Shown in pieces: positions 2,852-50,083 of a DNA stretch of 59,959 nucleotides. The notes under the pieces were generated by a model that was given only the letters and a program-made list of their open reading frames with translations, was not told the origin of the DNA and made no database searches. Location: the NCBI GenBank assembly GCA_964434145.1, contig CAYSUG010000004.1, positions 1 through 59,959 of the forward strand. The letters run 5' to 3'. Both the position numbers and the translations under genes were made by a program. The DNA is from an uncultured Christensenella sp. (GTDB taxonomy: Bacteria; Bacillota; Clostridia; Christensenellales; UBA1242). Positions within the stretch are counted from its first letter, which is position 1. Each line of letters starts with the position of its first letter.

Positions 2852-5800
2852 TTAATTACTACTGGTTGAGGCTAGAATATTAACAACAAAATCCTGTGTC
2901 CTAATCTGACCATCTGATCCAACAAAACTAATGGTTAGATCGACATCAGAGATTGCGTTTGCTACAAATTTCTTGCCAGATACTTCTATAACTTCTTGAT
3001 CAAACAAGAATATTATCTTGACCCCATTACTGTTATCTAGTGTATAAGAGAATGAATTAGTAGTAATATCTGCGATATTGTTCTCATTAAGAGTAACAAG
3101 CGTAGTATTGTTATTATTGGAATCTATAGAATATACAGTTAAATAAGTAGTTAACATATCAATAATAGTTGTACTAGTTAGTATGTTGGCACCACCAGTC
3201 ACACTCAGTTCTCTACTTACTGCTATAATATTACTTCCCATATCTAGTTCAATATTTTTCTTTATTGCAATAGGAATATTGATATTTATAGATTGTTCAC
3301 TGCCAAAGATTGCAGGAATACTATACTGCACTAATTCCAGGGTTATAGGAATGTTGTAGCTGCCACCACCTACCAGGTCTGACAATATCAGTGTATATCC
3401 AAGATCATCAACAGATGCTAGCATAGAATTACCGCCAGATACACTAAACTCTAACATATTTCCAGAGATTTCCGAAGATGTAATAGTTGTAATAATATCA
3501 TTGCCAGCAAAACGCAGTTTGAAATATTCATTCAGAGCATAAGTATTATCCGCATTCCATAAGGTATCAATATTGGCAAATTCATACTTGCAATTGATAT
3601 AGTCATATGGGACTAACGCTCCTCTATAATACAGCTCATAACCAGCTATCGGAGTTAGTATAGTTATAGTATTATTAGTAGCACCCACAAGGCCACTAGT
3701 GATAGTAAATTTAATAGGCAATACAAATGAACGACCAATAGGAATTGTTGAAAGAGTCTTTCCAACTTTGACTTCTGTAGAAACTAAAGTACCAAATGTT
3801 GCATTGCCGCCTACAAATTGATTCTTTACAGAATATGAATTTGTTTGATTTTGGTCATCATTCTCATGCCAGCTATGTGAAAAGTCCAGATTTTTATCAA
3901 TTGACAATACTGAGCTAATCTTGTCATACTCAATGCTAGAATATGTTGAATAACCATTAGCATAGGAGTTAAGCATCTTCATTGTCAGCAGATTGCCGTA
4001 TATATTATCACCGTTCTCAAGCAAACCATTATTCATATGAGTGAAGTAGTCTCCGCCCCTAATATCTCGTGATACACGATTGGACAGCGATACAGTAACT
4101 AACGGCTGTATGGTAATCTCATAGACCTTGCTAAGCACGCTATCAGCAAAACTAAATACTCCCGCAACATCAATAGTAAATGATACATATATTTGGGTAT
4201 ATATATCGCCTATAACTTTTAACTTGCAATCGTCTATACCAATATAATTAGCATAGGAAGATAAATTCGCAATCTCGCCATATATATTTCTATATTTTAC
4301 AGACTGGATTGTTACACCTGTAACACCATTAATTAATGAAGAGATATCATAAAAAATTGTCTTTGTTTTTGTATCTACAGTATATCCTTGTACAGCTATA
4401 GAAATATCATCAGTATTATCTGTAGTAAAGTTGTTGTGAGTAATGGTAGTATTATTTGCAAAGCCATATCCATCAGCATATGCTACGTATGGCTTGGAAT
4501 TTAATGCACTAGTATCTATTGTCATATTAGCTTTAACCAAGAATGTCAGAACCAGACTCTGATCTCCTAGAGTACAAGTAACATTAACAATTTTGTCTTC
4601 AAACTGATCATAGAAGTATATGGTTGGAGAATTTGCTCCTGCATATGTCTGTCCCTTCTCACCAAAATATGCATAGTTGGTATTATCTATAGAGAAGACA
4701 ATCTGTTTCTTTAAATTATCATCAGTAGTTGTACCATTAGTAATAGTAAAGTATTGGAACAAATCTGAATGAGATCTAGCAATACGTGTGTTTCCTTTAG
4801 TTGGTTTACCTTCACTACCTTCACCGCTTATTTCAATTTTTTCCAATATTCCGTCATTATTAGTCTTGGAATCATTAAAAGCAAAAGTAGGCATTGTACC
4901 AATTGCTGTAACTGCGAATTTAACTTCCTTTGTTACATCATCGCTACTACTACTTCTAAATGTCCATATCATGGAGTAGGATATAACAAATTTCCCCTCT
5001 ACTGCTGCTAGTGGTAGAGTTCCGTCGCTATTCAATTTTACTAAGAATGTCTCGTCGTCAACTATGGTCTCGTCGTCAACTATGATAAATGTATCTTTTA
5101 GGAAATATTTGGAATAAGAGTCTATCGATTCTTTAACTGGACCTTTATCACCATGATAAGTTATATCAGTAACCTTTACATAAATTGCACTAGCATCTTG
5201 GATAGATGTACTAGATACAGAATACGATATATTGTCCATGTTATACAGATTTGTTGTTGCAGGATCAGCATATATAAGAGAGTTAATATAATCAACAATA
5301 GACGACGTCGTAGTATCCATTCCACCAAGGTTAAATATATAATTATTCAGGCATTCCTCGACATAAGTATTAGACAACAACGAAATATCTACTATCGATT
5401 CTGCCTTATTTGTCATTTGATATACACCATTATCAAGGAATAAGCCTGCAGTAATATTGCCAGACATATTACCTGTCAATGTCGCAAATTTGCCGCTAGC
5501 ATCCAAAGCAAATATAAGCGGCCTATAATAAACTAAAGTATCACTACCTTCAGCAACACTAAGTTTTGCAAATGTATAGTTGTTGCTCCACAACCAGCTA
5601 TAACCATTCGCTGTCATGCTACCACTTGTCGTCAAATCTATTATTCCTGTCGTATTAGTATTAGCATCTACAACAGCATTAGTACCAGTGTACATATTAG
5701 AAAAGTCTGTAACTTTAACCTCATTAACCTCTACATACATAGAATCTGACGACAAATAGTCTACTTCTTTGATCAGAGATTGAGCTATTCCTAACAATGG

Positions 5801-8779
5801 TTTATCGTCAGGAGACGTAACTTTATTGGCTGCAAGTGATAGTATGATTGGGTGAATTGTCATTCCATCAATTATATTTTGTGTCCCTTTTTTTGCTATA
5901 TTCACATCTGTAGTTATTGTAGATCCACCAATTGTTATAGTTTGTTGTTGTATGTATGTAGCATCTATTGATATGTGTTCCGCTGCAGATATTGATACAG
6001 CTTCGAAGACAACTCCATCACTCTTACTTTCTACTTGGTCTATAAATTTATGCCAAGCAAGCAGCCTATTGGTTAGAGACTGAGCTAATTCGCTGGATTT
6101 GTTACTATTATACTCTAATAAATCAGTAAACGAATATGGCAAAACATATATAACATTATCATATTCCAAGCCCTTGATCAACTTTAGATATTCACCATTT
6201 CTTAGTAGCAAATCACCCTTGTTATATGTTTGATCAGCAACAAATTTATCTATCTTTATGCCATTTTCTTCCGTGGTTTCTACATGCCCAATTCTTATTG
6301 TCTCATCAAACTGCGTATAATAATATACATTTTCTAGCAGACTGCTTACTTCTATCATATTCTCAGAGAAATCAATGTCATTGATAGTAATATATTCTAC
6401 AGCAGATACATTGCTACCATTTAGAGTAATTATATTATGAGTTTTATCTTCATCATATACCTTGTTTCCCTCTCTATCCAGAGGATTGGCATTTATATCA
6501 CTGAATATATATGCTGCTGCTATTGCAACCTTGTTGTTACTAGCTGCCAATGCCTGTAATTCTCCCCAAGACAACTCATAGGCATACACCGTACCTACAA
6601 TGGAGTCCGTAGTAGTTGCAGTAGATGCAGTTGATTTAGTGTCCATATACTCATAATAATACTTTCCGTCACTTGTTATCTTCTGAACCAATACCTTGCC
6701 GTTCAAGTCTCTGAACTGGAATATCTTAGAGAACATATCAGAGTTCTCACTTGTATCTTTAAAAATTGGATACAGACTATTGCCATCAAAGGATGATGTA
6801 ATGATAGAATTATCCCCAAATGTCCATCCGGAACTGCCGTATGCACCTATATATGCAAATAGTTTGTATGAGGCTGGGTCAAATGTAACGGTAGTGTGTT
6901 TATCCCTCTGTCCTGCTGGGTTAGTTATAGTTTGCGTATTATATACTGATCCAACAATTTCTTTTAACTTCTCCATTACAGCGTCATTGGCTGTATAATA
7001 CATTGACTCTGATATAACATCAGACAATGCACTATTTAATTCCGTTCCATTCTCTCTGGTACTAGAAGTATCTTTTATTAACACCTTGGCATAATCATAG
7101 AATGTCTTCTTACCATCCTCACCCGCTACGTCTATGGAGAATCTTAAGTATATCTGGAAATCTTTAGACTTGCTAGGCACAAGGGTCGAAAACTTCCAAT
7201 ACGAATCCTCTGAATTATCATATTGCAATTTCTCTACATTTAGATACTTGTTATTAGCACCAAGCAATCCAGACCATACACCCTCTTTTGTATACAGCTC
7301 ATCTATATCGCTTTTGTAATTTACGTCACTCACATTATTAGCATTCTTAGGAAATTCAATCTTTGTAAGAGAACTCTTGCTGACAATAACATCAGCGCCA
7401 GAGGAATCCTTGATCGTCTTGGTCTCTGCATCATATACCAAGACTTCAATATCTAGATCATTTAATAGTTCTAACTTCACAGCCTCAGATATTGCGGCAT
7501 TCTCGTTAGAATTGGTTCCATCTATACGTATGTCAAAGACATCAATTATGTTTTCGCCATAGTCATAGTTGTCATCATTGTTATACAGATAGAAATAGTG
7601 ATCTCTTGTAATAATATTGTCATCTCCAACCAATTGAGCCAAATCTAACTCTACCACATCCGATTTTACACTAAAACTATTGACCTTAACATCAGATACA
7701 TAAAAATCTATAAACGTGGACACTAATACAAAATCCAAGGTTGTGGCAATCTTCTCTACAATATTAGAATCAGACACCTGTAGAGGTAATTCTTTTTCAA
7801 AAAATTCTGCCGCAGTAGGACTCTCTACAAAATACGTTCTATATTTCTGCAAGAACGCATTGTATGACTGCAACAACGATGCAAATGCTGTATCTGTAGC
7901 CAATTGCGATTGATTCTTTGTCAAATATTGCGACTCAAACTGACCGAAACCAGAATTCTTGAATTCTTCTTGGATAGTGTATGTCCTATGCACCTTAGAG
8001 ATAACTCTAATAGTATTAGATGAGATGCTAGCCGGATAGAAATTTAACTGATATCTATCATCGTCTATGTCATATTTGCAGTCTACAGGAATTCCCGCTG
8101 CAGCAGTCTGGCCTATAGTTATAGGCTGGAGACTAGAATTGGTGCTATCTGTAAGCTGATAATAGAAATATGTCTCTTTGTTCTGAGTACTGGACCATTG
8201 GTTAATATCGAATATATTATCCTTGTTACCTTCTAGATAGAATGATGTACTGGCCTTATTCTTGGATATTATGTACTGATTGGTCGATCCAGTACTAGAA
8301 TCCATCTTCAGATTAGTGCTGAAAACCAAGTCATTATCCTCTACTGGCACATCGACAATAATTTGCATTTTGCATGGAGTTATGAGATTACTCTCGCTCT
8401 CCTTTGATTTGCTAACGAATTCTAACTGGACATTTCCACCAACATTTCTACCATTTACATCTTTTTTGACAGATATAGTGAATGGTGTACCTGCCTTGAT
8501 ATTCTCTGGCACAATGACAGCATCGCCGTCTTGGATACATTTCAATTCTATGTCCGTAGCATCTTCTGGCAAATATTTGATAACAACATCTTTCATGTCG
8601 TCCTCTATTATGATAGGCTCTGTAACCCTTACACCTTCTGCGTTCTCATAATATATCTCAGTCATACCTATCCTGACCTCGTTAAAGCCACCAGTCAACG
8701 CGTAAACACCCACAGATACCAGCACTACACCCAAAACTGCAGCGATACTGATAGCGAAAATTATCCAAAACTTTTTCAT
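2852..8779 (-). CDS. giant N-terminally anchored surface protein (about 1975 aa), Ig-like/beta-rich repeats, N/S/T/Y-rich
   Basis: An uninterrupted 5.9-kb ORF. The likely start is the ATG at 8779 (MKKFWIIFAISIAAVLGVVLV, a signal anchor) with a GAGGAA SD 8 nt upstream. The ORF track's TTG at 8794 is probably not used. The first domain has a Big_2-like YLPEDAT motif. I saw no LPXTG, SLH or choline-binding repeats. Confidence 0.85.
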   Translation of the reverse strand: MKKFWIIFAISIAAVLGVVLVSVGVYALTGGFNEVRIGMTEIYYENAEGVRVTEPIIIEDDMKDVVIKYLPEDATDIELKCIQDGDAVIVPENIKAGTPFTISVKKDVNGRNVGGNVQLEFVSKSKESESNLITPCKMQIIVDVPVEDNDLVFSTNLKMDSSTGSTNQYIISKNKASTSFYLEGNKDNIFDINQWSSTQNKETYFYYQLTDSTNSSLQPITIGQTAAAGIPVDCKYDIDDDRYQLNFYPASISSNTIRVISKVHRTYTIQEEFKNSGFGQFESQYLTKNQSQLATDTAFASLLQSYNAFLQKYRTYFVESPTAAEFFEKELPLQVSDSNIVEKIATTLDFVLVSTFIDFYVSDVKVNSFSVKSDVVELDLAQLVGDDNIITRDHYFYLYNNDDNYDYGENIIDVFDIRIDGTNSNENAAISEAVKLELLNDLDIEVLVYDAETKTIKDSSGADVIVSKSSLTKIEFPKNANNVSDVNYKSDIDELYTKEGVWSGLLGANNKYLNVEKLQYDNSEDSYWKFSTLVPSKSKDFQIYLRFSIDVAGEDGKKTFYDYAKVLIKDTSSTRENGTELNSALSDVISESMYYTANDAVMEKLKEIVGSVYNTQTITNPAGQRDKHTTVTFDPASYKLFAYIGAYGSSGWTFGDNSIITSSFDGNSLYPIFKDTSENSDMFSKIFQFRDLNGKVLVQKITSDGKYYYEYMDTKSTASTATTTDSIVGTVYAYELSWGELQALAASNNKVAIAAAYIFSDINANPLDREGNKVYDEDKTHNIITLNGSNVSAVEYITINDIDFSENMIEVSSLLENVYYYTQFDETIRIGHVETTEENGIKIDKFVADQTYNKGDLLLRNGEYLKLIKGLEYDNVIYVLPYSFTDLLEYNSNKSSELAQSLTNRLLAWHKFIDQVESKSDGVVFEAVSISAAEHISIDATYIQQQTITIGGSTITTDVNIAKKGTQNIIDGMTIHPIILSLAANKVTSPDDKPLLGIAQSLIKEVDYLSSDSMYVEVNEVKVTDFSNMYTGTNAVVDANTNTTGIIDLTTSGSMTANGYSWLWSNNYTFAKLSVAEGSDTLVYYRPLIFALDASGKFATLTGNMSGNITAGLFLDNGVYQMTNKAESIVDISLLSNTYVEECLNNYIFNLGGMDTTTSSIVDYINSLIYADPATTNLYNMDNISYSVSSTSIQDASAIYVKVTDITYHGDKGPVKESIDSYSKYFLKDTFIIVDDETIVDDETFLVKLNSDGTLPLAAVEGKFVISYSMIWTFRSSSSDDVTKEVKFAVTAIGTMPTFAFNDSKTNNDGILEKIEISGEGSEGKPTKGNTRIARSHSDLFQYFTITNGTTTDDNLKKQIVFSIDNTNYAYFGEKGQTYAGANSPTIYFYDQFEDKIVNVTCTLGDQSLVLTFLVKANMTIDTSALNSKPYVAYADGYGFANNTTITHNNFTTDNTDDISIAVQGYTVDTKTKTIFYDISSLINGVTGVTIQSVKYRNIYGEIANLSSYANYIGIDDCKLKVIGDIYTQIYVSFTIDVAGVFSFADSVLSKVYEITIQPLVTVSLSNRVSRDIRGGDYFTHMNNGLLENGDNIYGNLLTMKMLNSYANGYSTYSSIEYDKISSVLSIDKNLDFSHSWHENDDQNQTNSYSVKNQFVGGNATFGTLVSTEVKVGKTLSTIPIGRSFVLPIKFTITSGLVGATNNTITILTPIAGYELYYRGALVPYDYINCKYEFANIDTLWNADNTYALNEYFKLRFAGNDIITTITSSEISGNMLEFSVSGGNSMLASVDDLGYTLILSDLVGGGSYNIPITLELVQYSIPAIFGSEQSININIPIAIKKNIELDMGSNIIAVSRELSVTGGANILTSTTIIDMLTTYLTVYSIDSNNNNTTLVTLNENNIADITTNSFSYTLDNSNGVKIIFLFDQEVIEVSGKKFVANAISDVDLTISFVGSDGQIRTQDFVVNILASTSSN
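5050..5085 (-). repeat. 18-nt in-frame tandem duplication (17/18 identical) inside the 1975-aa gene, encoding IVDDET-IVDDET
   Basis: The plus strand reads tctcgtcgtcaactatgg at 5050-5067, followed by tctcgtcgtcaactatga at 5068-5085. The protein reads ...FIIVDDETIVDDETFLV... Confidence 0.9.
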
Positions 8780-8891
8780 AATTCCATTCCTCAATTATAT
8801 AGATTAACAAAGCAAATCTTTTTCAACATTTCTTGACAAGTTACCATCGTCCCTCAATTCAAGGATAGTATCTGCAATATAATATATTTGT

Positions 8892-12117: not shown

Positions 12118-13593
12118 TTATAACAATATGCAGATTACTCCACCCTTACCTTCATTGACTATCCTCTTCATAGTTTTTGTCATCTTCTTCATTGCCTCTT
12201 GAGGTATGGATGACAGCTTGGTGTGCAGTCCTTCATTTACCAAATGATGCAGGCTGGTTCCAAATAATTTGGTATCCCAAATACTAGCTGGATCACTCTC
12301 GAACTGTCCTAACATATTTTTCACCAATTCTTCTGACTGTTGCTCTGTACCTACCAACGAATTAACCTCTGTATCCAGATCTATCTGCATAATGTGCAGA
12401 CTAGGTGCACTGGCACGTAATTTTACGCCATATTTGCCACCTTGCTTTATTATCTGTGGTGTCTCTAGCGTCATCTCGTCTAGCGTTGGCTGAACCACAC
12501 CATAGCCAGTCTCTCTTACTTGGTCTATAGCTTCCTTGAATTTGTCATACTGCTTCTTGGCTACAGACAGTTGCTTGATATACGACACCAATTGATAATC
12601 ATCCTTGATCTCCATATCGCATTGCTCTGACAGTACTTTGTAGAACAATTCTGGTTTTGGCTTGACAACAATCTCTACCTTACCCTCACCCAAAGAAACA
12701 TCTACGCTATTGACTATTTCTAAATCTTCATTGTCTGCAAATAATGTGATATCTTGCGGAATTTCGCCTATTTTTACAAAATCTGCAGTCTTTTCCTTTA
12801 CCTCATTAACGATTGCTGTAATGATCTGAGAATCAAACGGCAAAGCATTCATCCAGTTAGGCAATTTTACAGCAATCTTCGTTATAGGGAATGCCTTCAA
12901 GACCTCTGCAAATATCCAATTGATATCTTCCTCATTTATAGAACTAATATCCATAGGCATTACACTCGCACCATATTTTTCTTTCAGACTAGACGCCAAT
13001 GTCACAGTCTCTGGGCTGGCTGGATGAGAGGAATTAAGCAAAATAACGAATGGCTTGTTTGTCTGCTGCAATTGAGCTACGACACGCTCTTCTGCATCCA
13101 GATAGTCCTCTCTAGGAATACCCGTAATACTGCCGTCGGTTGTCACCATTATACCAATAGTAGAGTGCTGGGTAATAACCTTGTCAGTGCCTATCTCTGC
13201 TGCTTTTTCAAACGGCATTGGCTCTTCTGACCAAGGAGTATTCACCATTCTAGGCTTGTCATTTTCAACGTGTCCAATAGCACCCTTGACCATATATCCT
13301 ACGCAGTCTATCATACGCACATTGAATGTGATATTGCCATCCAATGTGACTGAGACTGCCTCATTAGGTAAGAATTTGGGCTGAGTAGTCATAATAGTCT
13401 TGCCGTCACCAGATACAGGCATCTCATCTATAGTCCTTTCTAATTCATAGCCGTCGGCAATATTAGGCAACACCAATGTGTTCAAAAACTTAGTGATAAA
13501 GGTGCTTTTGCCAGTTCTGACAGGTCCTACCACCCCCAAATATATGTCGCCCTTGGTCCTCAAGGCTATATCTTGATATACATCATAGTCCAT
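12118..13593 (-). CDS. spoIVA: stage IV sporulation protein A (spore coat morphogenetic ATPase)
   Basis: 491 aa. The N-terminus MDYDVYQDIALRTKGDIYLGVVGPVRTGKSTFI (Walker A) and the overall length are typical of SpoIVA. Confidence 0.95.
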   Translation of the reverse strand: MDYDVYQDIALRTKGDIYLGVVGPVRTGKSTFITKFLNTLVLPNIADGYELERTIDEMPVSGDGKTIMTTQPKFLPNEAVSVTLDGNITFNVRMIDCVGYMVKGAIGHVENDKPRMVNTPWSEEPMPFEKAAEIGTDKVITQHSTIGIMVTTDGSITGIPREDYLDAEERVVAQLQQTNKPFVILLNSSHPASPETVTLASSLKEKYGASVMPMDISSINEEDINWIFAEVLKAFPITKIAVKLPNWMNALPFDSQIITAIVNEVKEKTADFVKIGEIPQDITLFADNEDLEIVNSVDVSLGEGKVEIVVKPKPELFYKVLSEQCDMEIKDDYQLVSYIKQLSVAKKQYDKFKEAIDQVRETGYGVVQPTLDEMTLETPQIIKQGGKYGVKLRASAPSLHIMQIDLDTEVNSLVGTEQQSEELVKNMLGQFESDPASIWDTKLFGTSLHHLVNEGLHTKLSSIPQEAMKKMTKTMKRIVNEGKGGVICILL

Positions 13594-13745: not shown

Positions 13746-14969
13746 CTAATCTAATTTCTTTCTAAATATATCTCCAGCACGCAGCCCTGACAGATCTCCT
13801 ACATACAGTCTCAATCTCTGCTGCACCCTAAGAGCGTCTTCTACCTCTACACCAGTCTCGTCCAGCATCTGCGACACCACAATGACTTTATTAAAATTAT
13901 CACTTGGAGACAATATCTCCAGCGTATCTCCTATCTTAAATCTATTACGCTGCTCTATCTCTACCCATTCGTCGTCTTGGTCGGATGTAACAATTGCCAT
14001 GAACTCATGTGTCTGAATAGGCATAGACGTTTCTAAAAACTCCTTGTCCTTCTCGTGAAAATAAAATCCTGTAGAGAATCTCCTGTGACTAGTCTTCTCA
14101 CACTCTTCATATAGATACTCTGGACAAATAAAGTTATCTGGAGCAATAGAATACATATCTATGGCACGCCTATATGCATTTACAACCGTAGCTACATAAT
14201 ATGGACTTTTCATTCTGCCCTCTATCTTGAAGCTAGTTATCCCCGCATCGACCAGCTCCTTGATATGCCTAATCAGGCACATATCCTTGCTATTAAGGAT
14301 ATATGTTCCACGCTCGTCCTCTTGGATCTCATACTCATTACCACCTACTCTAGATTTCTCTCTAATAGTATACTCAAACCTACAAGCCTGCACACACGCA
14401 CCCCTATTGGAGTCTCTACCACATAGATAATTGGATAGCAAGCATCTGCCAGAATAGGATATACACATAGCACCATGAACAAAGCATTCTATCTCTATAT
14501 CTCTAGGAATATACTCTCTGATCTCTTTAATCTCTTCTATAGACAGCTCCCTTGCCAAGACAAGCCTCTTAGCACCCATTTTGACATATTCCATTGCAGA
14601 GTATTTATTAGTTATATTGCTCTGAGTTGATACATGGATATCTAGTCCTGGCGCGTACTCTCTGACATACGCCATTATGCCAAAATCACTGACAATTACC
14701 GCATCTACAGATATTTCTTGCAAGAATTCTAAATATTCCTTTAAGCCTGCAAAATCTGCATTGTGTGCCAGAATATTGACAGTAATATAGCACTTTTTGC
14801 CCAACGAATGAGCAAAGGCAACCGCCTCTCTTAGCTCTTCGTTAGTGAAATTGCCACTCATTGCACGCATTCCAAATTGGCGACCTGCAAAATAGCAAGC
14901 ATCTGCTCCGTAATATAGTGCTGTCTTCAATTTCTCCATATTGCCCGCTGGGGCAAGCAACTCTATCAT
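13746..14969 (-). CDS. peptidase U32 family protein (YrrN/YrrO / TrhP-like, tRNA ho5U-associated family)
   Basis: 407 aa. MIELLAPAGNMEKLKTALYYGADACYF is the typical U32 N-terminus. The start overlaps the upstream methyltransferase stop as ATGA. Confidence 0.9.
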   Translation of the reverse strand: MIELLAPAGNMEKLKTALYYGADACYFAGRQFGMRAMSGNFTNEELREAVAFAHSLGKKCYITVNILAHNADFAGLKEYLEFLQEISVDAVIVSDFGIMAYVREYAPGLDIHVSTQSNITNKYSAMEYVKMGAKRLVLARELSIEEIKEIREYIPRDIEIECFVHGAMCISYSGRCLLSNYLCGRDSNRGACVQACRFEYTIREKSRVGGNEYEIQEDERGTYILNSKDMCLIRHIKELVDAGITSFKIEGRMKSPYYVATVVNAYRRAIDMYSIAPDNFICPEYLYEECEKTSHRRFSTGFYFHEKDKEFLETSMPIQTHEFMAIVTSDQDDEWVEIEQRNRFKIGDTLEILSPSDNFNKVIVVSQMLDETGVEVEDALRVQQRLRLYVGDLSGLRAGDIFRKKLD

Positions 14970-15571
14970 TTTAATCCTCCCTTGTAATATGTTATGGCAT
15001 AGCCATCGTCTATATCTAGCTGTATCTCTGACTCAAATGGAGTATGTGATACCTCATTCAGATAATTCTGCAGGCTAGTCACTATAGTCTTGTGCCTATG
15101 CGGATACACCCCACTAGCCACCATGCCAAAGAATCCTACATTGTCTGCAAATATACAAGAGTCATCCGCAAGCATACTTTTGACAATCTGCAGATATCTA
15201 TAATAATAACCTTTGGGCCCATCAATGAACACAAAGTCAAACCTCTCTCCACTATCACGCAATTGCGACAGAATCTCATATGCGTCACCCAGTATACACT
15301 GCACACCACTAATGCCAGCCCGATCTATATTACTAACAGCCTCGTTATATCTAGCCTCATCCTTCTCTATTGTAACGACCTGAGATTCGGCAGCAGCACA
15401 TTTCATCAACATTGCAGAGTAACCTATGGCTGTACCTATCTCTAGTATCCTCTTAGGCCTTCTATCCTTTATCAGCTGATACAGTCGCCTAGCTGTCTCA
15501 TCACGAACAATAGGTACTCTATTATCTCTAGCGTAATCGTGCAATTGCACCAATAAACCCTTCAAATCCAC
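14966..15571 (-). CDS. class I SAM-dependent O-methyltransferase (YrrM/TrmR-like)
   Basis: 201 aa with the SAM motif ILEIGTAIGYSA and the FVFIDGPK motif. It is translationally coupled to the U32 gene, as in the B. subtilis yrrM-yrrN-yrrO locus. Confidence 0.85.
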   Translation of the reverse strand: MDLKGLLVQLHDYARDNRVPIVRDETARRLYQLIKDRRPKRILEIGTAIGYSAMLMKCAAAESQVVTIEKDEARYNEAVSNIDRAGISGVQCILGDAYEILSQLRDSGERFDFVFIDGPKGYYYRYLQIVKSMLADDSCIFADNVGFFGMVASGVYPHRHKTIVTSLQNYLNEVSHTPFESEIQLDIDDGYAITYYKGGLK

Positions 15572-15693
15572 AACTAATTATCATTCCTTCTGATATAATC
15601 ATGGCATATTCTAACACAAAACAAAACAAAAGTACAGACTAAATACAAGAAAAAAAGAATAATTAGCCTAAACTAATTATCCTTATGAGTAGA

Positions 15694-16185
15694 TTAATCA
15701 ATCTTACTATACACTGCCCTATATATCTGCATAACCACATTTGCCTCATCTGTATCTGATGCATTCTGTATTGACATAGTGTCACCCTCTACATCATCAA
15801 CAATCTTACCTATCATTGCCTCATATGGTTCATCCTCTGTCATTAATACTACATACAGATCATTCTGGTAAGGAATGTAAGCTAATATCACAAACTCCCT
15901 ATCCCTTAACTCTAATACAGTTCCAGCCTGCGGCAATATTTTACTATAATCCTCTAATACATTATGAGACAATATCTCTAATACACTCGCTAATTCATGC
16001 TCATCATCAATAAGGGTCAATGTATCTTCGCCATCTTCAAATAATCTCTTGAAAAGACTATAATTAGATGATAATTCATCTCCAACCATCTCTACACAAC
16101 TATAATAAGTAATACCATTATTCTCTATCATATCTACAACTAGATATTTCTTGTCTGCCACATTTAATACAAAATTCTTTTCCAT
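15694..16185 (-). CDS. acidic cytoplasmic protein with two DUF1292-like repeats (paralog of 17194..17682)
   Basis: 163 aa. Both halves fit the DUF1292/YrzB pattern as I remember it: KYLVVD..YY...LIDDEHELASVLEIL, and EFVILAYIPYQNDLYVVLMTEDE...DEANVVMQIY. Confidence 0.6.
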   Translation of the reverse strand: MEKNFVLNVADKKYLVVDMIENNGITYYSCVEMVGDELSSNYSLFKRLFEDGEDTLTLIDDEHELASVLEILSHNVLEDYSKILPQAGTVLELRDREFVILAYIPYQNDLYVVLMTEDEPYEAMIGKIVDDVEGDTMSIQNASDTDEANVVMQIYRAVYSKID

Positions 16186-16207
16186 TTCTTTCTCATCCTT
16201 ATCTTTG

Positions 16208-17095
16208 TTATGGTGTAGACATAGCAGCAGCTTTTGCTCTGCTAAATTCCTTTCCTACCCATTTGGTCAATGCAATTGCACCTACAGCAGCTGCAACTAC
16301 TGGAGCTGCACCTGCAGCAAATGTACCAACAGCCGCCCAAGTAGCAGGATTGGTCACTGCTGCGATAACACCAGCACCTAGTGCCGTGCCTTTGGTTGCA
16401 AGAATTCCTGCACCTGCACCAATAACGCCCAATTTCACTGCATTGTTCTTAATCATTCCGCCTACACTACGAGCAAATATTCCTAGCTTGGTATCAGAAA
16501 AGTTAGGCACCTCTTCTACAGTAAAGCTATTACCTTTGAAATAATCTCTCTGTGCAGCTGTACCTAAGAACGCTCTCTTGATATCATCATTGGCCTCGAC
16601 CTCCGCATCGTTATAGACATTATGTCTAGTACCTCCAGATACAGACTGAGTTGCTGTCATTATGTTGAGTTTGTCTGCACCTGCGTCTGTCACCCTTGCC
16701 ATATCACAATTCTCGAACATGAATTCATGCATTTGTCTAAGTTTGGAATTTGGAGTAATCTCGCCAGCCTTTATCTTCGTAGTATATACCGCACCATTAT
16801 CAGCCACGATCTTTACTTTTACTTTTTTGTTCTTAGCAGTTAATTTCTTTTCATTTAAATAAGCTTGAAACGCATCAAATGACTTATAACTACCATCTGC
16901 CAGGTCTACTGTAGCAGTAACAATGTCCGACTCATTGGAATCAACCCTCAGATTCCTGTCATTACGTGCAATAGTAGTATCAAACTCTACCTTCTGCCTA
17001 CCAGAGCTATCCCTAACAATGTTAATAGCCTTATCTGCCGCAGATCTAACATCCTTATTATTAGTCAACGTTTTATTTTTTTTCGTAATTGCCAT
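16208..17095 (-). CDS. unknown protein with a C-terminal Gly/Ala-zipper membrane segment
   Basis: 295 aa with no signal peptide. The C-terminus GVIGAGAGILATKGTALGAGVIAAVTNPATWAAVGTFAAGAAPVVAAAVGAIALTKW carries repeated GxxxG/A motifs, and the tail is SRAKAAAMSTP. Confidence 0.6.
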   Translation of the reverse strand: MAITKKNKTLTNNKDVRSAADKAINIVRDSSGRQKVEFDTTIARNDRNLRVDSNESDIVTATVDLADGSYKSFDAFQAYLNEKKLTAKNKKVKVKIVADNGAVYTTKIKAGEITPNSKLRQMHEFMFENCDMARVTDAGADKLNIMTATQSVSGGTRHNVYNDAEVEANDDIKRAFLGTAAQRDYFKGNSFTVEEVPNFSDTKLGIFARSVGGMIKNNAVKLGVIGAGAGILATKGTALGAGVIAAVTNPATWAAVGTFAAGAAPVVAAAVGAIALTKWVGKEFSRAKAAAMSTP

Positions 17096-17193
17096 TCTTA
17101 CAATCTCCTATAAAAAATTTCCTTTGTAATTGTACCAGATTTAATAGTAATAGTCAATACTAAAACAGCACAACAAAAAGGAAATTATAATTA

Positions 17194-17682
17194 TTAGCTA
17201 TTCAAATCTGCATATATTCTTAGTGCTAATATACCCTCATCATGAGATGAGACATCTCTCAACTCAATATCTCCAACCACATCTACTGATATTAATCTAC
17301 AAACTTTTACTTCTACAGGCTTGCTAACAGACAACAAAATCATATATGCATTGTTATTATATGCAATGTATTGCATAAGAATAAATTCTTTGTCGCCAAT
17401 TGGCATAACAGTGCCTTCTTCTGGCAAACCTTCAGTTGATTTTTGCATATACATTGCTGCAAAAATACCCATTAGATCTCTACATAATTGTTTATCTTCA
17501 ACTATCTCATAGAATTCTTTGCCACCTTCTACAGTTTGCCTTAGTGCAGCATATTCTCCGACAAAATTATTCGTCTCATCTAGTTTTGCTGCTTGATAAT
17601 ATATATTTCCCTTGTATTTTACTGGTTCGGTAATTAAATACTTATCCCCAGTCACACTAGTAATTATATAACTTTCTGCCAT
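17194..17682 (-). CDS. acidic cytoplasmic protein with two DUF1292-like repeats (paralog of 15694..16185)
   Basis: 162 aa. It shares KYLITE..GNIYYQ and GDKEFILMQYIAYNNNAYMILLS with the paralog. It lies 11 nt downstream of the 506-aa gene. Confidence 0.6.
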   Translation of the reverse strand: MAESYIITSVTGDKYLITEPVKYKGNIYYQAAKLDETNNFVGEYAALRQTVEGGKEFYEIVEDKQLCRDLMGIFAAMYMQKSTEGLPEEGTVMPIGDKEFILMQYIAYNNNAYMILLSVSKPVEVKVCRLISVDVVGDIELRDVSSHDEGILALRIYADLNS

Positions 17683-17693
17683 TTTTCACTCCT

Positions 17694-19214
17694 CTATTCT
17701 CTATCCATATCTGGACCTGAAGATTCAGCTGCCTTTGCAGCCTTTTTTGCTTGATGTATATTATGAATTGTCTTGCCTATCTTATAAATACCATACACAG
17801 CACCTGCCACTGCAATACCCTTGCCAACAAAGTTCATTACATCCGCAGCCTTTTCCAAGAACTCAAAATTAGAAATAATGTTATCAGCTGTCGCATCTGT
17901 CATACCATCCGCACCAGCAGTAAGGTTATCGCCATGTCCGGTTGTTGTCATACCATTATCAGGATTAAAGTTCTTAATACCGCCATACTCTTTCAATCCA
18001 TCACCATATTGTCCCCTAATTCTAGCAGCTTCTGTCTCTGCCAAATCCTGAACTGGATTATCTTTTACCTCTGAAATAAAACTACCATCTGGGCCTTTTA
18101 CACTATTAGCATTGTATACATTAAGCCATTTCGCTCCATATGCTGTAAGGACTGAAGGAACAGCTCTCATAATCATTTTGCCAGCAAGCATTGGGATACC
18201 CACACCGCCAATTAGTCCTGTAGCCAAGGTTACTCCCAATCCTACCGCCAACGGCGCCCATTTTTTGATATTAGCTTTTTGTTTATCAGTCAAGCCAAAT
18301 TTCTTCTTCTCCGCACCTCTAACAGCATTGATTCTTATATACTGCGTTGGGTCATTTGCACTTACAAAGTCTTCCCTATTAGCTTCACCAAGTTGAGTCT
18401 TTCCTTTGAATTCAGAGTGATCACCAGATTGCATATTATCTGCTTGGAACCCAAACCAGCCTCCACCTTTGCTACTATCTTTTATTTCTTTCTCTGATGG
18501 CAACGTTATAGCCGCTTCTTTTGCTAGAGCTTCATTTAACTTTTTTAGACTACCTTTTGAGATTTTCTTTCTAAACAAAGCTTTCTTTAACTTGATTACT
18601 TCGCCGCTACCCAGCTCTATTTCGCCTCTTTTGTTCTGTTTAATTAAATTTTCTATTGCTTTGTCAATATCTTCCCTTGCAAAATATGAACCTTCGTCCA
18701 GCATTCCTGCCGTCTTCTTGCCCTTGTCGTTTTCCTTCTTCTCACCGTAGGCATTTCTAGGATTTTTAACTTCCTTACCATCTTCTGTCTTAACAAAAGC
18801 AACTCTATTCTTGTCCTCTACTATAATCTTTTTATCAATATCACCTAAATAGTTTTTAGTATTTGCTTGATTCTTGTTTTGCTTTGGCTTTTCATTTTCA
18901 TTTTTACTGTTCTCTTTTTTTGTTCTCTCTGCCAGTTCTTTTTTTCTGTCTGGTTTTTCTCTCTTTCTGAATGCCTCTTCCAATCTTGTACGCAAGCCCT
19001 TTCTTTCTCTTTTTACTTCTGGCTTTGCGTTCTCAGCATTATCATTTTGATGTTCAGCACCCCATGCGCTAATAATCTGACTAGCGTGATTACCTGCAAC
19101 TTCACCTATATTAGTTCTATACCAATTAGCCAATTCTGCAGGATCTGCCCCGCCATTCAATTGCGCAATGATAGAATCTTCAAAATCTTGTGTCCATACT
19201 GCCATAAAATCCAC
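17694..19214 (-). CDS. unknown 506-aa protein: K/E-rich N-terminal half, internal Gly-zipper hydrophobic segment, C-terminal amphipathic Gly/Ala helix
   Basis: An uninterrupted ORF with no signal peptide. It contains WAPLAVGLGVTLATGLIGGVGIPMLAGKMIM and FVGKGIAVAGAVYGIYKIG, and the tail is AKKAAKAAESS. Confidence 0.6.
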   Translation of the reverse strand: MDFMAVWTQDFEDSIIAQLNGGADPAELANWYRTNIGEVAGNHASQIISAWGAEHQNDNAENAKPEVKRERKGLRTRLEEAFRKREKPDRKKELAERTKKENSKNENEKPKQNKNQANTKNYLGDIDKKIIVEDKNRVAFVKTEDGKEVKNPRNAYGEKKENDKGKKTAGMLDEGSYFAREDIDKAIENLIKQNKRGEIELGSGEVIKLKKALFRKKISKGSLKKLNEALAKEAAITLPSEKEIKDSSKGGGWFGFQADNMQSGDHSEFKGKTQLGEANREDFVSANDPTQYIRINAVRGAEKKKFGLTDKQKANIKKWAPLAVGLGVTLATGLIGGVGIPMLAGKMIMRAVPSVLTAYGAKWLNVYNANSVKGPDGSFISEVKDNPVQDLAETEAARIRGQYGDGLKEYGGIKNFNPDNGMTTTGHGDNLTAGADGMTDATADNIISNFEFLEKAADVMNFVGKGIAVAGAVYGIYKIGKTIHNIHQAKKAAKAAESSGPDMDRE

Positions 19215-19643
19215 TCCTTAACCTATATAAAACTGATAATAGTTTACCAAATTAAAGCAAAATTACCAAACAATCTACACAAAATATTATTTAAATCGCC
19301 AAAAACACACTTTATTTACAAAAAAGTGTAATAATTTCTATTGATTTTTGGATAAAAATAGTGTAAGATAATATTAGTTTGATTAGATATTGTATGAATT
19401 GATAAAGAGTCATAGGTTAGAGTTCTGATGCAAGGACTCATTGTTATAGTATGATTAATTCATTGATTCGAGGCGGAAAAATATAGCCATTTATTTTTGA
19501 CTTGCTATTATGTGGTCAAAGGTTTGTTTTTGTATGCTATTGTGTTGCAAATAGTTTTTTTGCAATAATTTATGCCGTTTATAGCGGCCATATATCGTTA
19601 TCTAATAAATACATAAAAAATTTAAAGTAAATAAGGAGAAAAA

Positions 19644-21377: not shown

Positions 21378-23213
21378 TTAACTGCTAGTATCAATTTCTA
21401 CCATATACCAATAATATTCATACATTGCAGATTGAATTGTCTCCGAGTATAACTGGATTCCATCGTCAGAATAAGCCCAATCTTGGTTAGCATGAAAGGC
21501 ACTGCTCATATCTCCTTGTGGCATAACAACTACATTAGATGCAATATTATCCAATAAATAATGCCATGGGCCCCACTTAGAAGTATCAGCTTCACTTGAT
21601 TTATCCTTTAAGAAATTGGCCGTTGTTGAACCTTCAATCTTGCCATAACTAAATGTTCCATGACCTACTATTGCACCAGTGTTACTGAATGTAGAATCTA
21701 AAAATACATAACTATCTGTTATTGAACAATTTGAAACTTTTGATATAGAAGCATATCCACATACGCCACCAACACTATTTTGATCGCTATATACATTGAC
21801 GTTAACAACATCACAGTTCTTTACTTCTGCCAATTCAAATGTAATCCAACCTGTAGAATAACTATCTTTATACTGATAATGTGATATAGTATTGTGAAGA
21901 TAACCAACTACTGAACCAACATAGTAACCACCCTCAACTGTGGCAGAATTGATGTTAATATTCTCTATAACACCACATCTAACATAACCAAATAGTCCTA
22001 TTCCTGCAGAATAATTTCCTTCAGCTTCGCCATTCTTGTTTCCTACCCCAGTACCCACTTCTTGGATATTTAGATTATATATTGTTTTTTCTCCTTCACA
22101 GCCAAAACCTGCACTTGTTGTAGTGAAATATCCAGAGAAACATCTATAATTACCAGTCCATCCATAGCCACTACCAATAGGCTCAAACTTGTATCCACCT
22201 AGATCTATATCGCATCCCAATACAAAAGTAGTTCTCACAATATTATTTGCACCTTGATCATTCGTTCGGAACGCCACATTACTCTCTGTATATTCAGAAT
22301 GGTTAATATAATCAGCAAGGGCAATCAGATCCGCAGCGGACTGTATTAGTACAGTTCTATCAATCTTTGCCACTCTATCATCAATAGTCTCATTACCAGT
22401 TAATTCAAAATCACTAAGTGTAACAAAGTCTAAATTACCATAACCCGCAAGAGGATTATCTGTATACACCGCAAAAACGTGCGAATCACCATCTACAAAC
22501 GAACCATCCCATGTACTTAACGCAATCTCATTATGTTGCCATTCAGCTGCTGTGGCTAAATTTAGCTGAATATAGTCTTCGTCATATATATCATAACTAA
22601 TTAATATTATTAATTCCATCTTATAATTGTCAATATCTATAGTTGCATCATTAACCTCTAATACAACAAAAAAGTCTGTACTATTCTGTGATGTTGTATT
22701 AGCAGCAATAGATGCAAAATGCACACCTTTGTAGCTTTGAGCTTCTGCAATCGTTGCTCCCATACTTACCTTGACGTTAGATTGCTTATTTACGCCCTTT
22801 GCCTCTGCCTTGATCTGTAATTGTCTAGTATTAGACTCGTTTGGTGTTGCGGTGTTTAGAATATTAAATTTATATACAGCCTTATCTGTAGCATCTAATA
22901 TTACCTTGTCAAATTCTGCACCACTCTTAGTTGCTACTCCATTAGTACCAGAGTCAGATGCCTTGAATTCTATCTTATGCTCAGTCTCAGATGTACCATT
23001 AATTATTGATATATCTTCTATCTTATCACTGCTATGCAATTGTCCACTAGCTGTTACAATACAATCTACATTATTAGCAGTATAGGATACTGTCATTGTG
23101 TTGTTAAGGTTTGCTTGGCTAGCAACCAATACTATCCCAACAGCTAGGCCAATGATAACAAGAACCATTACCGAAATTATAGTAATAATGGCTATTTTTT
23201 GTTTTGATTTCAC
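21378..23213 (-). CDS. N-terminally anchored surface protein: family-specific beta-rich N-domain plus C-terminal GLUG-like parallel beta-helix region
   Basis: The likely start is the GTG at 23213 (VKSKQKIAIITIISVMVLVIIGL) with an AAGGAG SD 7 nt upstream. The C-terminal half has IQSAADLIALADYIN...LGCDIDLGGYKFEPIG...FSGYF...GIGLFGYV...YVGSVVGYL, typical of GLUG-motif adhesin or protease-associated repeats. Confidence 0.8.
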   Translation of the reverse strand: MKSKQKIAIITIISVMVLVIIGLAVGIVLVASQANLNNTMTVSYTANNVDCIVTASGQLHSSDKIEDISIINGTSETEHKIEFKASDSGTNGVATKSGAEFDKVILDATDKAVYKFNILNTATPNESNTRQLQIKAEAKGVNKQSNVKVSMGATIAEAQSYKGVHFASIAANTTSQNSTDFFVVLEVNDATIDIDNYKMELIILISYDIYDEDYIQLNLATAAEWQHNEIALSTWDGSFVDGDSHVFAVYTDNPLAGYGNLDFVTLSDFELTGNETIDDRVAKIDRTVLIQSAADLIALADYINHSEYTESNVAFRTNDQGANNIVRTTFVLGCDIDLGGYKFEPIGSGYGWTGNYRCFSGYFTTTSAGFGCEGEKTIYNLNIQEVGTGVGNKNGEAEGNYSAGIGLFGYVRCGVIENININSATVEGGYYVGSVVGYLHNTISHYQYKDSYSTGWITFELAEVKNCDVVNVNVYSDQNSVGGVCGYASISKVSNCSITDSYVFLDSTFSNTGAIVGHGTFSYGKIEGSTTANFLKDKSSEADTSKWGPWHYLLDNIASNVVVMPQGDMSSAFHANQDWAYSDDGIQLYSETIQSAMYEYYWYMVEIDTSS

Positions 23214-23273
23214 CTCTTTTCTCCTTATCTTTATATTATTATACGCAATTAATACCCCCATAATCCTATAGTG

Positions 23274-23306
23274 ATTATACCATCCCCCCCCCCCCCCCAG
23301 GTGCAA
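23274..23306 (-). promoter_or_regulatory. candidate promoter TTGCAC-(21 nt spacer containing G15)-TGgTATAAT
   Basis: On the minus strand, TTGCAC is at 23306-23301, followed by CTG, G15 at 23298-23284, ATGG, and TATAAT at 23279-23274 (TGn extended -10). Confidence 0.6.
23284..23298 (-). repeat. homopolymeric G15 tract (C15 on the plus strand)
   Basis: Counted directly: 15 consecutive C at 23284-23298. Confidence 0.95.
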
Positions 23307-23779: not shown

Positions 23780-24001
23780 ATGGCAAAGAATTCTGATTAT
23801 TTTGGTTTGAGTAGAATTATTAGCTTGATCCTAGCAATCATTCCAGTTACATCATGGATCTGTGGTGCTGTAACAAGATTTGCGGAAGGCAAGATTGTTG
23901 CTGGTCTAATCAGATTAATCTTTGGTTTCACTATTGTGTGGATCCTAGACTTAATCTTCATGATTTTGAACGGCAAGATTTGCAGACTACTTAACGTTTA
24001 A
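23780..24001 (+). CDS. small two-TM membrane protein (73 aa), unknown function
   Basis: A strong SD (AAGGAG), two hydrophobic helices, and its own terminator. Confidence 0.65.
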   Translation: MAKNSDYFGLSRIISLILAIIPVTSWICGAVTRFAEGKIVAGLIRLIFGFTIVWILDLIFMILNGKICRLLNV

Positions 24002-36117: not shown

Positions 36118-39100
36118 CTACTCTTGTGTTCCCATACCATTCATTGTCCTATATACAACTTTGATATTGCTTGATAACGGATCCAAATCCCAAATCGAAG
36201 GATTAGTTGCATTTCCTAAGACATTATCAAAGATATCATAAGGATTCGCTGAGTCATAAGAGTATGCACTGTCTGGCATATCACCAGTATATGTTCCTAT
36301 GCCAGAAGGTGTAGTCGTATATTGTTTGAATACATTGCTATTATAATATACTCTATCAAATGTAACACCACCAGCGTTATTCGCATATACGCCACCTATT
36401 GTAGCGGAATCGTCTATGGAACTATTTTGCGAATCTAAATCTATAGTGGTATATATATTGGACAATTCACAAGAACTACTTCCATTCTCATACTTGGCAT
36501 ATACAGCACCAAACTTAGCATTGCTGGTAATTTTTAATCCAGCCAATTCCACATAACTATTGGATATTGTTACACTCATCTGTGGTTTGATATAACATAC
36601 CAGTCCACCAATATAATAATCTGACGTTCCGCTGCCACTCATAGTACCAGTATTATAACATCTATCAACAGTGCCCGCATATACAAATGCTGCAATTACG
36701 CCCATATTACGTCCTGTCATTATTCCACTATAAGAGCTAACATAAATACCTGCATTAGCATAATTAATATTATCATATCCGTTGTATACAGCAATGCCTG
36801 CTAATCTAGCATTCGCAGCCCCAGTAGTCTCTGTAATATTGGCAGAGACATTAGCATATGCAATTGTGCCCATATTACTATACACAACACCACCAATATA
36901 CGCATTTGCATTGCTTGTTATTCTTGCCACCAAATCACCAGACACATTCACATTGGCAATCAAACCGTAGTTATATATAGCCACAACACCAACATAAGTA
37001 GGCACCGTTCTATCAATAACATTGTCATCATTATTAGTTAGAACAATATTCATATTTATAACCGCTGCAGTGCTTGCGATATTATAGAACAATCCAGCAT
37101 AATATGCACTGCCCGCCTCATCTATAGAACTGCTAGATATCAATACGTTAAATGAATAATTGCCACCATCTAACACACCATTGAATGCCTTCTGATTATT
37201 TAGTCCCAATGTAGCAGATACAGTCTCTGTAATATCAGTATTTACCACAAAATGGCAGCTTTCGTCAATATAATACTCTATACTATTTAGACTCTTGATT
37301 ACAAATGGTGTATCCTTACTACCATCACCACCGGCAAACAACGTAAAGCTTAATTTTTCCAACATTGTAGGTTTGGATATAAATGATGATGTATTGTCAC
37401 CTGAACTTGTATTACCTGAACCTACAGACATATTACCTATCGCCCTTATTGTCACATTGGTAATATTGTTGGACAAATAACGCAATTTGTAATAAGCATA
37501 TATTGTCTCATCATTTGACTCATCTATAACACTGTATGTAATTACATCTTTGCTATTAATTGTAATAATATCTACATAATATACATTCTCCGTATTCTGG
37601 AAATCAAATACATCTCTATTATTATAATCATTTGCATTTAGACCTAATAGATTGATAACTTGCAGTCTTAGTTTGTCTATTTCTGCCCTCTTGTCTCCAA
37701 AATAATTACCTGAATGAATACTGAAATTATCATAATTTATTATCAATCTAGTAATATTGTTATAATGACTTGTTGCCTCAGTTGCATCTTCCCTTTGATA
37801 AGCTACTACAATCTCATAATTAACATTTCTAACATATTCCCATGATAACGTTCCGTTATTATCATAGCTAAGACTTTCTGGCGTACTAGGCAGCGATATC
37901 TCCATTGCTTGTGCTAACTTCGTCTCTGTAGCAAGGTGATATGTCAAATAATATGTATCGTTGATACTATCCTTAGCTATAGAAGATTCTATTGTATCAC
38001 CTATTGATTGCAGATATATATAGATACTAGAAGAATCCAAAGTATTAAGAGTTCTATCCATTGCAAAATATATATTGTCGTCACTGATGCTAAGGCAAGT
38101 ATTGTAATCACCCTCCATAGCCACAAGATCTCCATTATTATCTATCTGATATAGTGTAACGATAGAACCACGTATCTTATAGATATAACGCAATACCGCA
38201 CCCTCCAATACATCACTATGACTAGTATATATCTCTATATTATAACTCACAACATTATCATTCGGCTTTTCCCAATAAATATAGTTACTATATTTGTATT
38301 CTGAAGGAATGCCACTAAATATACTTTGTTCTTTCGCATCTGTAGAAGCCTCGTATTGTCTAGGATTAACTGCTGTATCTGGATTGTTTAGCATAACAAA
38401 ATTCGTCATTACAGCCTCGCTAGATATCACATACTCTGTATTCTCACCAAATGCGATATTGTATCTGTTTTCATTCGCAAAGAATCTAATAGATACCTCA
38501 TAGTTCTGGCCTTCTATGAATTGAATCGTTGATGATCCATGACCATTTGGATTATCATTAGTAAATTTTGCCTTGTAGTGATCTGCAGAACTAGTTCCGT
38601 CAATCTCTATAGAAATTTTTTCTGCTAATATTTTCTGGAACTGGAAGCTAGATATATCATAGCCAAATTCTAACTTAAGCGTAGTATCTACCTCAGTCTC
38701 TACATCCCCTACATAGACCTTTCCCTTAATCGTGATTCTGGTTGCAGCTAGCTCGCTGCCCATTACACTTGTAGTTGTATTCCAACTAATATCTCCGTCT
38801 GTTACCCTAACCTCAGGATAATGAATAGTCCTAATATAGAAGTCTGCAGTGTATACGCTACGCAATATTGCATCCTTAACCTCTGGAGACGTATCTGAGA
38901 AATTGGTTTTGTCTATAGACTTGATCTTGATTGTATAGGAACCTGCATTTGGAACAAACTTGTCGCCAATACCTACACCATCAGAATCGTATTGTGGATA
39001 CAAACTGTATATATTTAGGCTCTTAGACTTTAATACACCTGATGTATATACAAGATTACCACTAGAGTAGATGAATACAATATAGTCATTATTATAACTA

Positions 39101-49402: not shown

Positions 49403-50083
49403 TTATGAATAATAATTGATCAATTCTCCCATTTTGGCGGTCCTGATAACATCTTCCTTAATGGTGTTGTTCTCGCATTCTAGCACCACCTTGGATAGCG
49501 ACACCTCATAGGCTGTCTTGGTAATCACCTCACCATTATCCAGTTTCTTCTGATACACTCTGCTCTGGATCCTACCAGACACACTTACCTTGTCGCCAAT
49601 TTTGAAATTCTTGACATATCTAGCATTTCTGCCCCATGCTATACATGGGATATAGTCGCTCTTGTTATAACTACGATTGACAGCCAATAACACATCACAT
49701 ATCTCTCTATTGAATGGTGTAGTCCTATAGATAGGCTCCTTGCATACATAACCTACTATATCCACCTCATTTTCATCCTCTTCCACTTCTTCCAAGAACT
49801 CTCTAACAAATATTGTAAGTAGCAGCTTCGACTTATTATCCACTAATTTATTATAACTTCTGTATTGTCCTAGGAAGTGCACTTTCTGACCAATTGTAAG
49901 CCGCTCATTGTCTATCAATCTCTCAGAAATAGTAACTGGGATGATATCGTAAATATCCGACAACCTCTTAATCTTGATACTAAATTCATAGAATCCTTCA
50001 CCAAATATTTCATGGCTAAATGTAGGCTCCTTTGTTATTTCTCCAGACACCCTTACTGTGTTATTGTTTTCAATTTCGTTCAT
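49403..50083 (-). CDS. single-stranded DNA-binding-like protein with two tandem OB folds and no acidic C-terminal tail
   Basis: 226 aa. The second half, VGYVCKEPIYRTT...IPCIAWGRNARYVKNFKIGDKVSVSGRIQSRVY, fits the SSB OB-fold pattern. The first half is a divergent copy. Confidence 0.7.
   Translation of the reverse strand: MNEIENNNTVRVSGEITKEPTFSHEIFGEGFYEFSIKIKRLSDIYDIIPVTISERLIDNERLTIGQKVHFLGQYRSYNKLVDNKSKLLLTIFVREFLEEVEEDENEVDIVGYVCKEPIYRTTPFNREICDVLLAVNRSYNKSDYIPCIAWGRNARYVKNFKIGDKVSVSGRIQSRVYQKKLDNGEVITKTAYEVSLSKVVLECENNTIKEDVIRTAKMGELINYYS

Follow-up and report, generated by a model that had tools for sequence, protein, structure and literature searches.

A duplicated gene pair encoding a predicted membrane protein and a tandem DUF1292 protein in uncultured Christensenellales-like Clostridia

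On the minus strand of a contig from an uncultured Christensenella sp. (CAYSUG010000004.1, assembly GCA_964434145.1) two pairs of genes follow one another, each encoding a large basic protein and then a small acidic one, and the locus raises the question of whether such a pair constitutes a functional unit and, if so, of what kind. The window, i.e. the whole stretch of DNA that was analyzed, comprises positions 1–59,959 of this contig. Its preliminary description had proposed a duplicated two-gene module, and reading of the sequence confirmed the four open reading frames (ORFs), their coordinates and the gaps of 11 nucleotides (nt) between the large and the small gene of the first (A) pair and 22 nt in the second (B) pair; the duplication is borne out as well, both genes of the pair being paralogous across the copies. 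The reading that we prefer, tentatively and at somewhat less than an even chance, is that each pair forms a specificity-matched complex between a membrane-anchored large protein and a cytoplasmic partner made of two DUF1292 domains. In transcription order the four genes, with protein lengths in amino acids (aa) and isoelectric points (pI), are:

17694..19205, minus strand: A-type large protein, 503 aa from ATG 19205, 506 aa if started at GTG 19214
17194..17682, minus strand: A-type small protein, 162 aa, pI 4.6, tandem DUF1292-like
16208..17095, minus strand: B-type large protein, 295 aa, pI 9.5
15694..16185, minus strand: B-type small protein, 163 aa, pI 4.1, tandem DUF1292

The small proteins provide the link to a known family. 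Compared with the Pfam DUF1292 profile (PF06949), the 163-aa protein scores 37.7 bits (E 3.9e-9) in two stretches, against a gathering threshold of 24 bits. Each of its halves aligns to nearly the whole 75-position profile, and the N-terminal half taken alone, which spans profile positions 7–70 of 75, scores 23.7 bits (E 9e-5), 0.3 bits below the threshold. The 162-aa protein has no Pfam match of its own; in the small-protein family to which it belongs, 7 of the 11 members match DUF1292 at E <= 0.1. It is 25% identical to the B-type protein across 158 aa (BLASTP E 1e-21), which agrees with the earlier proposal that the two are paralogs, and it groups with the proteins L001up169, L002up166, L166_173 and L005_163. 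Comparison of the N-terminal with the C-terminal halves of the small proteins by hhalign gave a probability of 84–88% (E 3e-6 to 8e-6), and the C-terminal halves also align with canonical single-domain DUF1292 proteins from other Firmicutes (E 3e-6 to 3e-5). An AlphaFold2 (AF2) model of the 163-aa protein (pLDDT 83.5, pTM 0.73) consists of two successive units, each of 4–5 strands and a helix. The identification of the small proteins as tandem DUF1292 proteins is thus supported, directly for the B type, which passes the Pfam threshold, and by homology only for the A type; the double DUF1292 architecture suspected previously is borne out by the Pfam match, the scoring of both halves, the hhalign comparisons and the AF2 model.

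Across the family the small proteins are acidic (pI 4.1–5.2) and 162–173 aa long. They share with the DUF1292/UPF0473 family, represented by Bacillus subtilis YrzB, the match of the 163-aa protein above threshold, the alignable C-terminal halves, the acidic character and a position upstream of trmR-U32. They differ in having two domains instead of the single one of the canonical 80–122-aa proteins, in a net charge of –4 to –23 compared with –17 to –38 in half the length, and in that the 162-aa copy alone falls below the Pfam threshold. A sequence search found no solved DUF1292 structure, and a Foldseek search of the PDB and BFVD with the small-protein AF2 model yielded nothing significant. Its top PDB matches were PUR-alpha repeats I–II (E 0.018–0.06, TM-score ~0.2, root mean square deviation ~17 Å). 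The two units of 4–5 strands and a helix may resemble the beta-beta-beta-beta-alpha units of PUR-alpha and Whirly repeats, which pair up, but the Foldseek matches are not significant and the small protein is acidic; nucleic-acid binding is unlikely because of this acidity.

Neither large protein has a significant match in Pfam, NCBIfam, PADLOC, PHROGs or PDB sequences, and the earlier failure to place them in a known family is thereby upheld. The A-type protein comprises a basic Lys/Glu-rich N-terminal part, a soluble domain (approximately aa 117–241), a Gly/Ala-rich hydrophobic segment (aa 318–356), a second, weaker hydrophobic segment (aa 459–477) and a basic tail. In the B-type protein the soluble domain (approximately aa 11–137) is followed by a conserved Gly/Ala-rich hydrophobic hairpin (aa 222–282) and a basic tail. 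Both window proteins are basic (pI 9.1 for A, 9.5 for B). The hydrophobic Gly/Ala-rich segments and basic Ala-rich tails that had been reported are present in both, and no N-terminal hydrophobic segment is found in either, in line with the stated absence of a signal peptide. The term "glycine zipper", used for these segments in the preliminary description, is approximate: there are 18–19 small-xxx-small motifs, but just 2 strict GxxxG motifs per C-terminal region, and neither the Pfam Gly-zipper families nor Rick_17kDa_Anti matched the large proteins at E <= 1.

When the A-type and B-type family profiles are compared by hhalign, they align over ~120 soluble residues (aa 117–241 of the 506-aa protein with aa 11–137 of the 295-aa protein; probability 90%, E 1.5e-6). 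Judging by this alignment, the two large proteins are distant paralogs, and the claim that their N-terminal halves are unrelated has to be withdrawn. Since the domain is shared, both genes of the pair would have been duplicated together. A possible resemblance of the 295-aa family to SUMO2 (E 9e-4) was rejected, as it results from two weak beta-hairpin matches of ~30 residues summed on a di-SUMO chain (single SUMO2, E 0.8); likewise, hhalign found nothing to suggest that the soluble domain is DUF1292-like. Among the closer members of the B type, conservation is highest in the C-terminal hydrophobic region (58–75% identity, against 20–53% elsewhere). Positive charges lie on either side of the hairpin; on hydropathy and charge only, an N-in/C-in topology is predicted for it.

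Homologs of these proteins are few. A word-indexed profile search with the small proteins returned just 5 proteins, and when the profile of the 295-aa family was run exhaustively by HMMER against 1.84 billion protein representatives, it matched four in total, the lookup of which exposed further loci, including the one that we designate L166 (via P0010). The same word-indexed approach found only the 506-aa protein itself, but we do not regard this protein as an orphan: its 561-aa homolog in L166 (L166_561, 33% identity, E 9e-26) shows the sensitivity limit of that search, and L005_443 is a further homolog. A scan of the genome collection revealed no relatives of the 295-aa family and gave no usable pattern with the small-protein alignment; a metagenome scan found no relatives with the B-type small alignment and only relatives of <=39% with TrmR. 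The known A-type large proteins have 506 (window), 561 (L166) and 443 aa (L005), and the B-type ones 295 (window), 284 (L001), 285 (L002), 301 (L166), 726 (L164) and 469 aa (L004), so that lengths range from 284 to 726 aa, with long low-complexity N-termini. The 726-aa protein (L164 10001–12181) has a long acidic/Ser-rich N-terminal extension, and the basic motif GF[LF]SRFGRKKK occurs in it twice.

Altogether, seven lineages of Christensenellales-like Clostridia, all of them uncultured, contain the large–small pair, and outside this narrow group of gut Clostridia the module was not found. Four of the lineages have both copies, A then B (the window, L166, L001 and L002, the contigs of the latter two being cut inside the A pair), and three a single form (B in L004 and L164/L165, A in L005). 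The adjacency of large and small genes, which the preliminary description had proposed to check in other genomes, is conserved in all seven, with gaps of 10–36 nt, and in each of them an A-type small gene always follows an A-type large gene and a B-type small gene a B-type large gene. We found no genome carrying one gene of the pair alone. On contigs showing both flanks, the pair is invariably bordered by a divergently transcribed RNase J gene on one side and trmR-U32 on the other. Because the types of the small proteins match those of their large partners, the two-gene unit appears to have been duplicated before the sampled lineages split, one copy having later been lost in some of them.

Could the two genes simply be neighbors, a fast-evolving gene for a low-complexity membrane protein next to a divergent yrzB-like gene, without any joint function? 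The large proteins do contain much low-complexity sequence and evolve rapidly, and across Firmicutes DUF1292 genes occupy this general neighborhood, upstream of trmR-U32. However, the pair was duplicated as a unit and the A and B types of both genes co-segregate in the seven lineages, the spacing is tight, a single promoter precedes each pair, and neither gene has been found without the other, so that we judge mere proximity to be quite improbable.

Compared with its surroundings, the module is strongly divergent. An RNase J gene (rnj) lies upstream and is transcribed divergently; on the other side profile matches confirmed the trmR-like and U32 genes that had been noted there:

14966–15571, downstream of the module: TrmR/YrrM-like O-methyltransferase (Methyltransf_3, E 6e-20)
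13746–14969, downstream of the module: U32 peptidase (E 2e-94)
12118–13593, downstream of trmR and U32: SpoIVA

Across the clade, amino-acid identity is 88–97% for RNase J, 79–98% for U32, 71–91% for SpoIVA and 56–72% for TrmR; it is 22–55% for the small proteins, and the large proteins are barely alignable. In L001 and L004 the U32 proteins are 98% identical, and the DNA of the two loci is 92–98% identical along most of U32 and in the 5' portion of spoIVA. Nucleotide identity falls from 86–98% to 55–66% within the 5' part of trmR (L001 1961–2400), and upstream of this point nothing is homologous at the DNA level. The L001 cassette contains at least an A-type small gene, at which the contig starts, and a B pair of 284/163 aa; the L004 cassette consists of one different B pair (469/165 aa). 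We read the drop within trmR as a recombination breakpoint bordering the module, and the module as displaying cassette-like allelic replacement within a conserved housekeeping region. Separately, a patch of 65 nt between RNase J and the module (window 19335–19399) is 94% identical to L004 3743–3807 in otherwise unalignable surroundings. An rnj leader or promoter element is one possibility; neither this patch nor any other part of the window gave a match in an Rfam scan.

A divergence valley of this sort, with near-identical U32 genes next to non-homologous cassettes and a breakpoint inside trmR, is what would be expected if the large protein were an effector and the small one its neutralizer (in a toxin-antitoxin-like, abortive-infection or kin-discrimination system), the Gly/Ala hairpin damaging or permeabilizing the membrane unless held by the cognate small protein, and diversifying selection driving the A and B alleles. 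The co-divergence of cognate pairs, their duplication and loss, the encoding of an acidic small protein directly after a basic hydrophobic one, and the hydrophobic hairpin as the region under the strongest constraint would all fit. We nevertheless consider it unlikely, though by no means negligible, because none of the four proteins matches a toxin, antitoxin, defense or phage profile (Pfam, NCBIfam, PADLOC, PHROGs), the chromosomal slot is constant and has no mobile-element genes nearby, the pair is present in every genome with the rnj-inverted arrangement, all copies have a constitutive-looking sigma-A-type promoter, and proteins of 284–726 aa with long low-complexity N-termini are unlike small membrane toxins or holins. 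Polymorphic cognate-pair loci are also found elsewhere, e.g. the agr specificity groups, comQXP pherotypes and toxin-immunity cassettes. The module resembles them in its hyper-divergent cassette between conserved flanks, its co-diverging partners and the replacement of whole alleles among close relatives, but there is no sequence or domain similarity, and no signaling, kinase, peptide or toxin component was recognized.

For the specificity-matched complex that we prefer, a parallel is the canonical Firmicutes neighborhood of DUF1292, alaS-ireB-ruvX-DUF1292-mltG-trmR(yrrM)-U32(yrrN/O). In L030, L033, L036 and L054 a gene for a single-domain DUF1292 protein is directly upstream of that for MltG (YceG match, E 1e-85 to 1e-94), followed by trmR-U32; other distant Firmicutes have the order DUF1292-Fur-RNase J-YlbF-TrmR-U32, and in Finegoldia (L061) RNase J belongs to the neighborhood as well. 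As in these loci, a DUF1292 gene and a gene for a membrane-anchored protein are neighbors in the window and immediately precede trmR-U32. Unlike in them, the small genes are not beside ireB-ruvX or mltG and follow the gene for a novel membrane protein, whereas mltG follows the DUF1292 gene; profile scans of the window proteins found no ireB, ruvX or alaS. The large proteins also differ from MltG itself, as they have no YceG domain match and their hydrophobic segments are C-terminal instead of forming an N-terminal anchor.

In sister genomes (U32 65–71% identical) rnj-trmR-U32 are co-directional and tightly packed, without the module, and because nothing lies between these genes there, the module looks like a lineage-specific insertion. 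The idea that the small gene is a holdover of the ancestral yrzB position is uncertain, as rnj-trmR-U32 of the sister genomes lacks DUF1292. In related Clostridia (L006–L010, L021, L022, L026 and L027) the genes for RNase J, trmR and U32 run in one direction with hardly any space between them, so that an rnj-trmR-U32 operon is suggested, which would tie RNase J to the tRNA 5-methoxyuridine (mo5U) modification genes trmR and U32.

Expression signals bear on the timing at which the pair could act. Those of the window are:

19241..19269, minus strand: putative sigma-A-type promoter of operon A (TTGGTA, 17 nt, TAAACT, with TG before the –10 box)
17129..17157, minus strand: sigma-A-type promoter of operon B (TTGACT, 17 nt, TACAAT, with an extended –10 TG)
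15650..15680, minus strand: intrinsic terminator downstream of operon B (AT-rich hairpin of 13 bp, then a U-run)

By sequence pattern match, a sigma-A-type promoter precedes each of the nine large genes examined, its –10 box ending 30–39 nt before the start, and eight of these promoters match 10–12 of the 12 consensus positions (TTGACA-17-TATAAT). The window promoter of operon B, which has counterparts in L001, L002 and L166, agrees with the consensus at 10/12 positions and is 33 nt from its ATG; that of operon A is the weakest (8/12), ~35 nt from the ATG. This distance refers to ATG 19205, the likelier start of the A-type large gene (503 instead of 506 aa), because GTG 19214 overlaps the AGGAG ribosome-binding site and the ATG is 8 nt past it; the database gene call P0001 also has 503 aa. 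The terminator of operon B (–11.6 kcal/mol, z = –4.7) folds better than all of 200 shuffled sequences (0/200 fold as well), and none was found after operon A. These signals point to two housekeeping-type bicistronic operons that are predicted not to be under sporulation-sigma control.

It had also been suggested that the large protein is a sporulation-associated membrane scaffold, for instance an anchor acting with SpoIVA in spore coat assembly. The attraction of this idea is the presence of spoIVA 2–5 kilobases downstream in the window, L001, L004 and L164, which also implies that these organisms are probably spore-formers. We regard such a scaffold as highly improbable because the promoters are of the sigma-A type at 9/9 large genes (8 of them near-consensus), with none resembling sigma-E, K, F or G promoters. 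Moreover, a terminator separates operon B from trmR, both trmR and U32 (and in L164 also a gene for a leucine-rich repeat protein) intervene between the module and spoIVA, and L024, L025 and L029 have spoIVA without the module.

How might a specificity-matched complex be built? The large protein would be anchored in the cytoplasmic membrane via its C-terminal hairpin, rich in small residues, while its long, basic and largely low-complexity N-terminal part and the conserved ~120-aa domain would face the cytoplasm. The small protein, acidic and located in the cytoplasm, would combine two DUF1292 beta-sheet-plus-helix units in one chain as a pseudo-dimer, and would bind its own large partner and thus be brought to the membrane. 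The pair would have been duplicated as a unit, giving rise to the A and B types, and whole cassettes would be swapped by recombination between close relatives. Transcription from housekeeping sigma-A-type promoters would make it probable that growing cells produce both proteins. In this model we infer the membrane topology, the physical binding and any cellular role of the pair; the role may be that of an envelope-associated adaptor, by analogy to the DUF1292-MltG neighborhood.

Several points weigh against such a complex. The extreme allelic divergence fits conflict or recognition systems better than housekeeping adaptors. A conserved Lys/His is found midway in the first hydrophobic segment, a position where a simple transmembrane helix would not normally carry such a residue. 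For the 295-aa protein AF2 produced a model too unreliable to use (pLDDT 39), and both AF2 models are of single chains. The analogy to MltG, in turn, is one of gene neighborhood alone.

Other features of the window deserve brief mention. Two giant minus-strand ORFs (36118–48564, 4148 aa, and 2852–8794, 1980 aa) have no Pfam match at E <= 1e-4. A 642-aa protein (21378–23306, minus strand) with a hydrophobic segment near the N-terminus has no Pfam match either; a 577-aa relative (~72% nucleotide identity) occupies the same position in L004. A 73-aa hydrophobic protein (23780–24001, plus strand) is conserved in the same neighborhood in L005 (4832–5053), and L164 has a 73-aa gene at the equivalent place (7063–7284). 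Finally, an SSB-family protein of 226 aa (49403–50083, minus strand) has its OB domain at aa 105–196, preceded by an N-terminal extension of ~100 aa.

DUF1292/YrzB is conserved across Firmicutes in the neighborhood of ruvX, ireB and mltG, and the literature on DUF1292, YrzB and UPF0473 gives no function for it. That DUF1292 genes adjoin membrane-protein genes upstream of trmR-U32 is already known; no description was found, in the literature and databases searched, of tandem DUF1292 proteins, of this new membrane-protein family or of their duplicated, co-diverging pairing. The module may offer a functional lead: a single-chain tandem DUF1292 protein that is always paired with a membrane-anchored partner, and diverges in step with it, raises the hypothesis that DUF1292 is a protein-binding module acting at the membrane, and the pattern of cassette-like allelic replacement usually marks specificity or conflict functions. 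Taken further, DUF1292 could be a specificity-determining binding module for membrane-anchored partners, the tandem protein of a polymorphic, co-evolving pair holding or regulating a membrane-inserting protein, with alleles kept diverse by selection as in conflict or recognition systems. We consider this extended proposal rather doubtful; if it were true, it would provide the first functional lead on the widespread YrzB/DUF1292 family and would point to an action of canonical YrzB on the cytoplasmic tail of its neighbor MltG.

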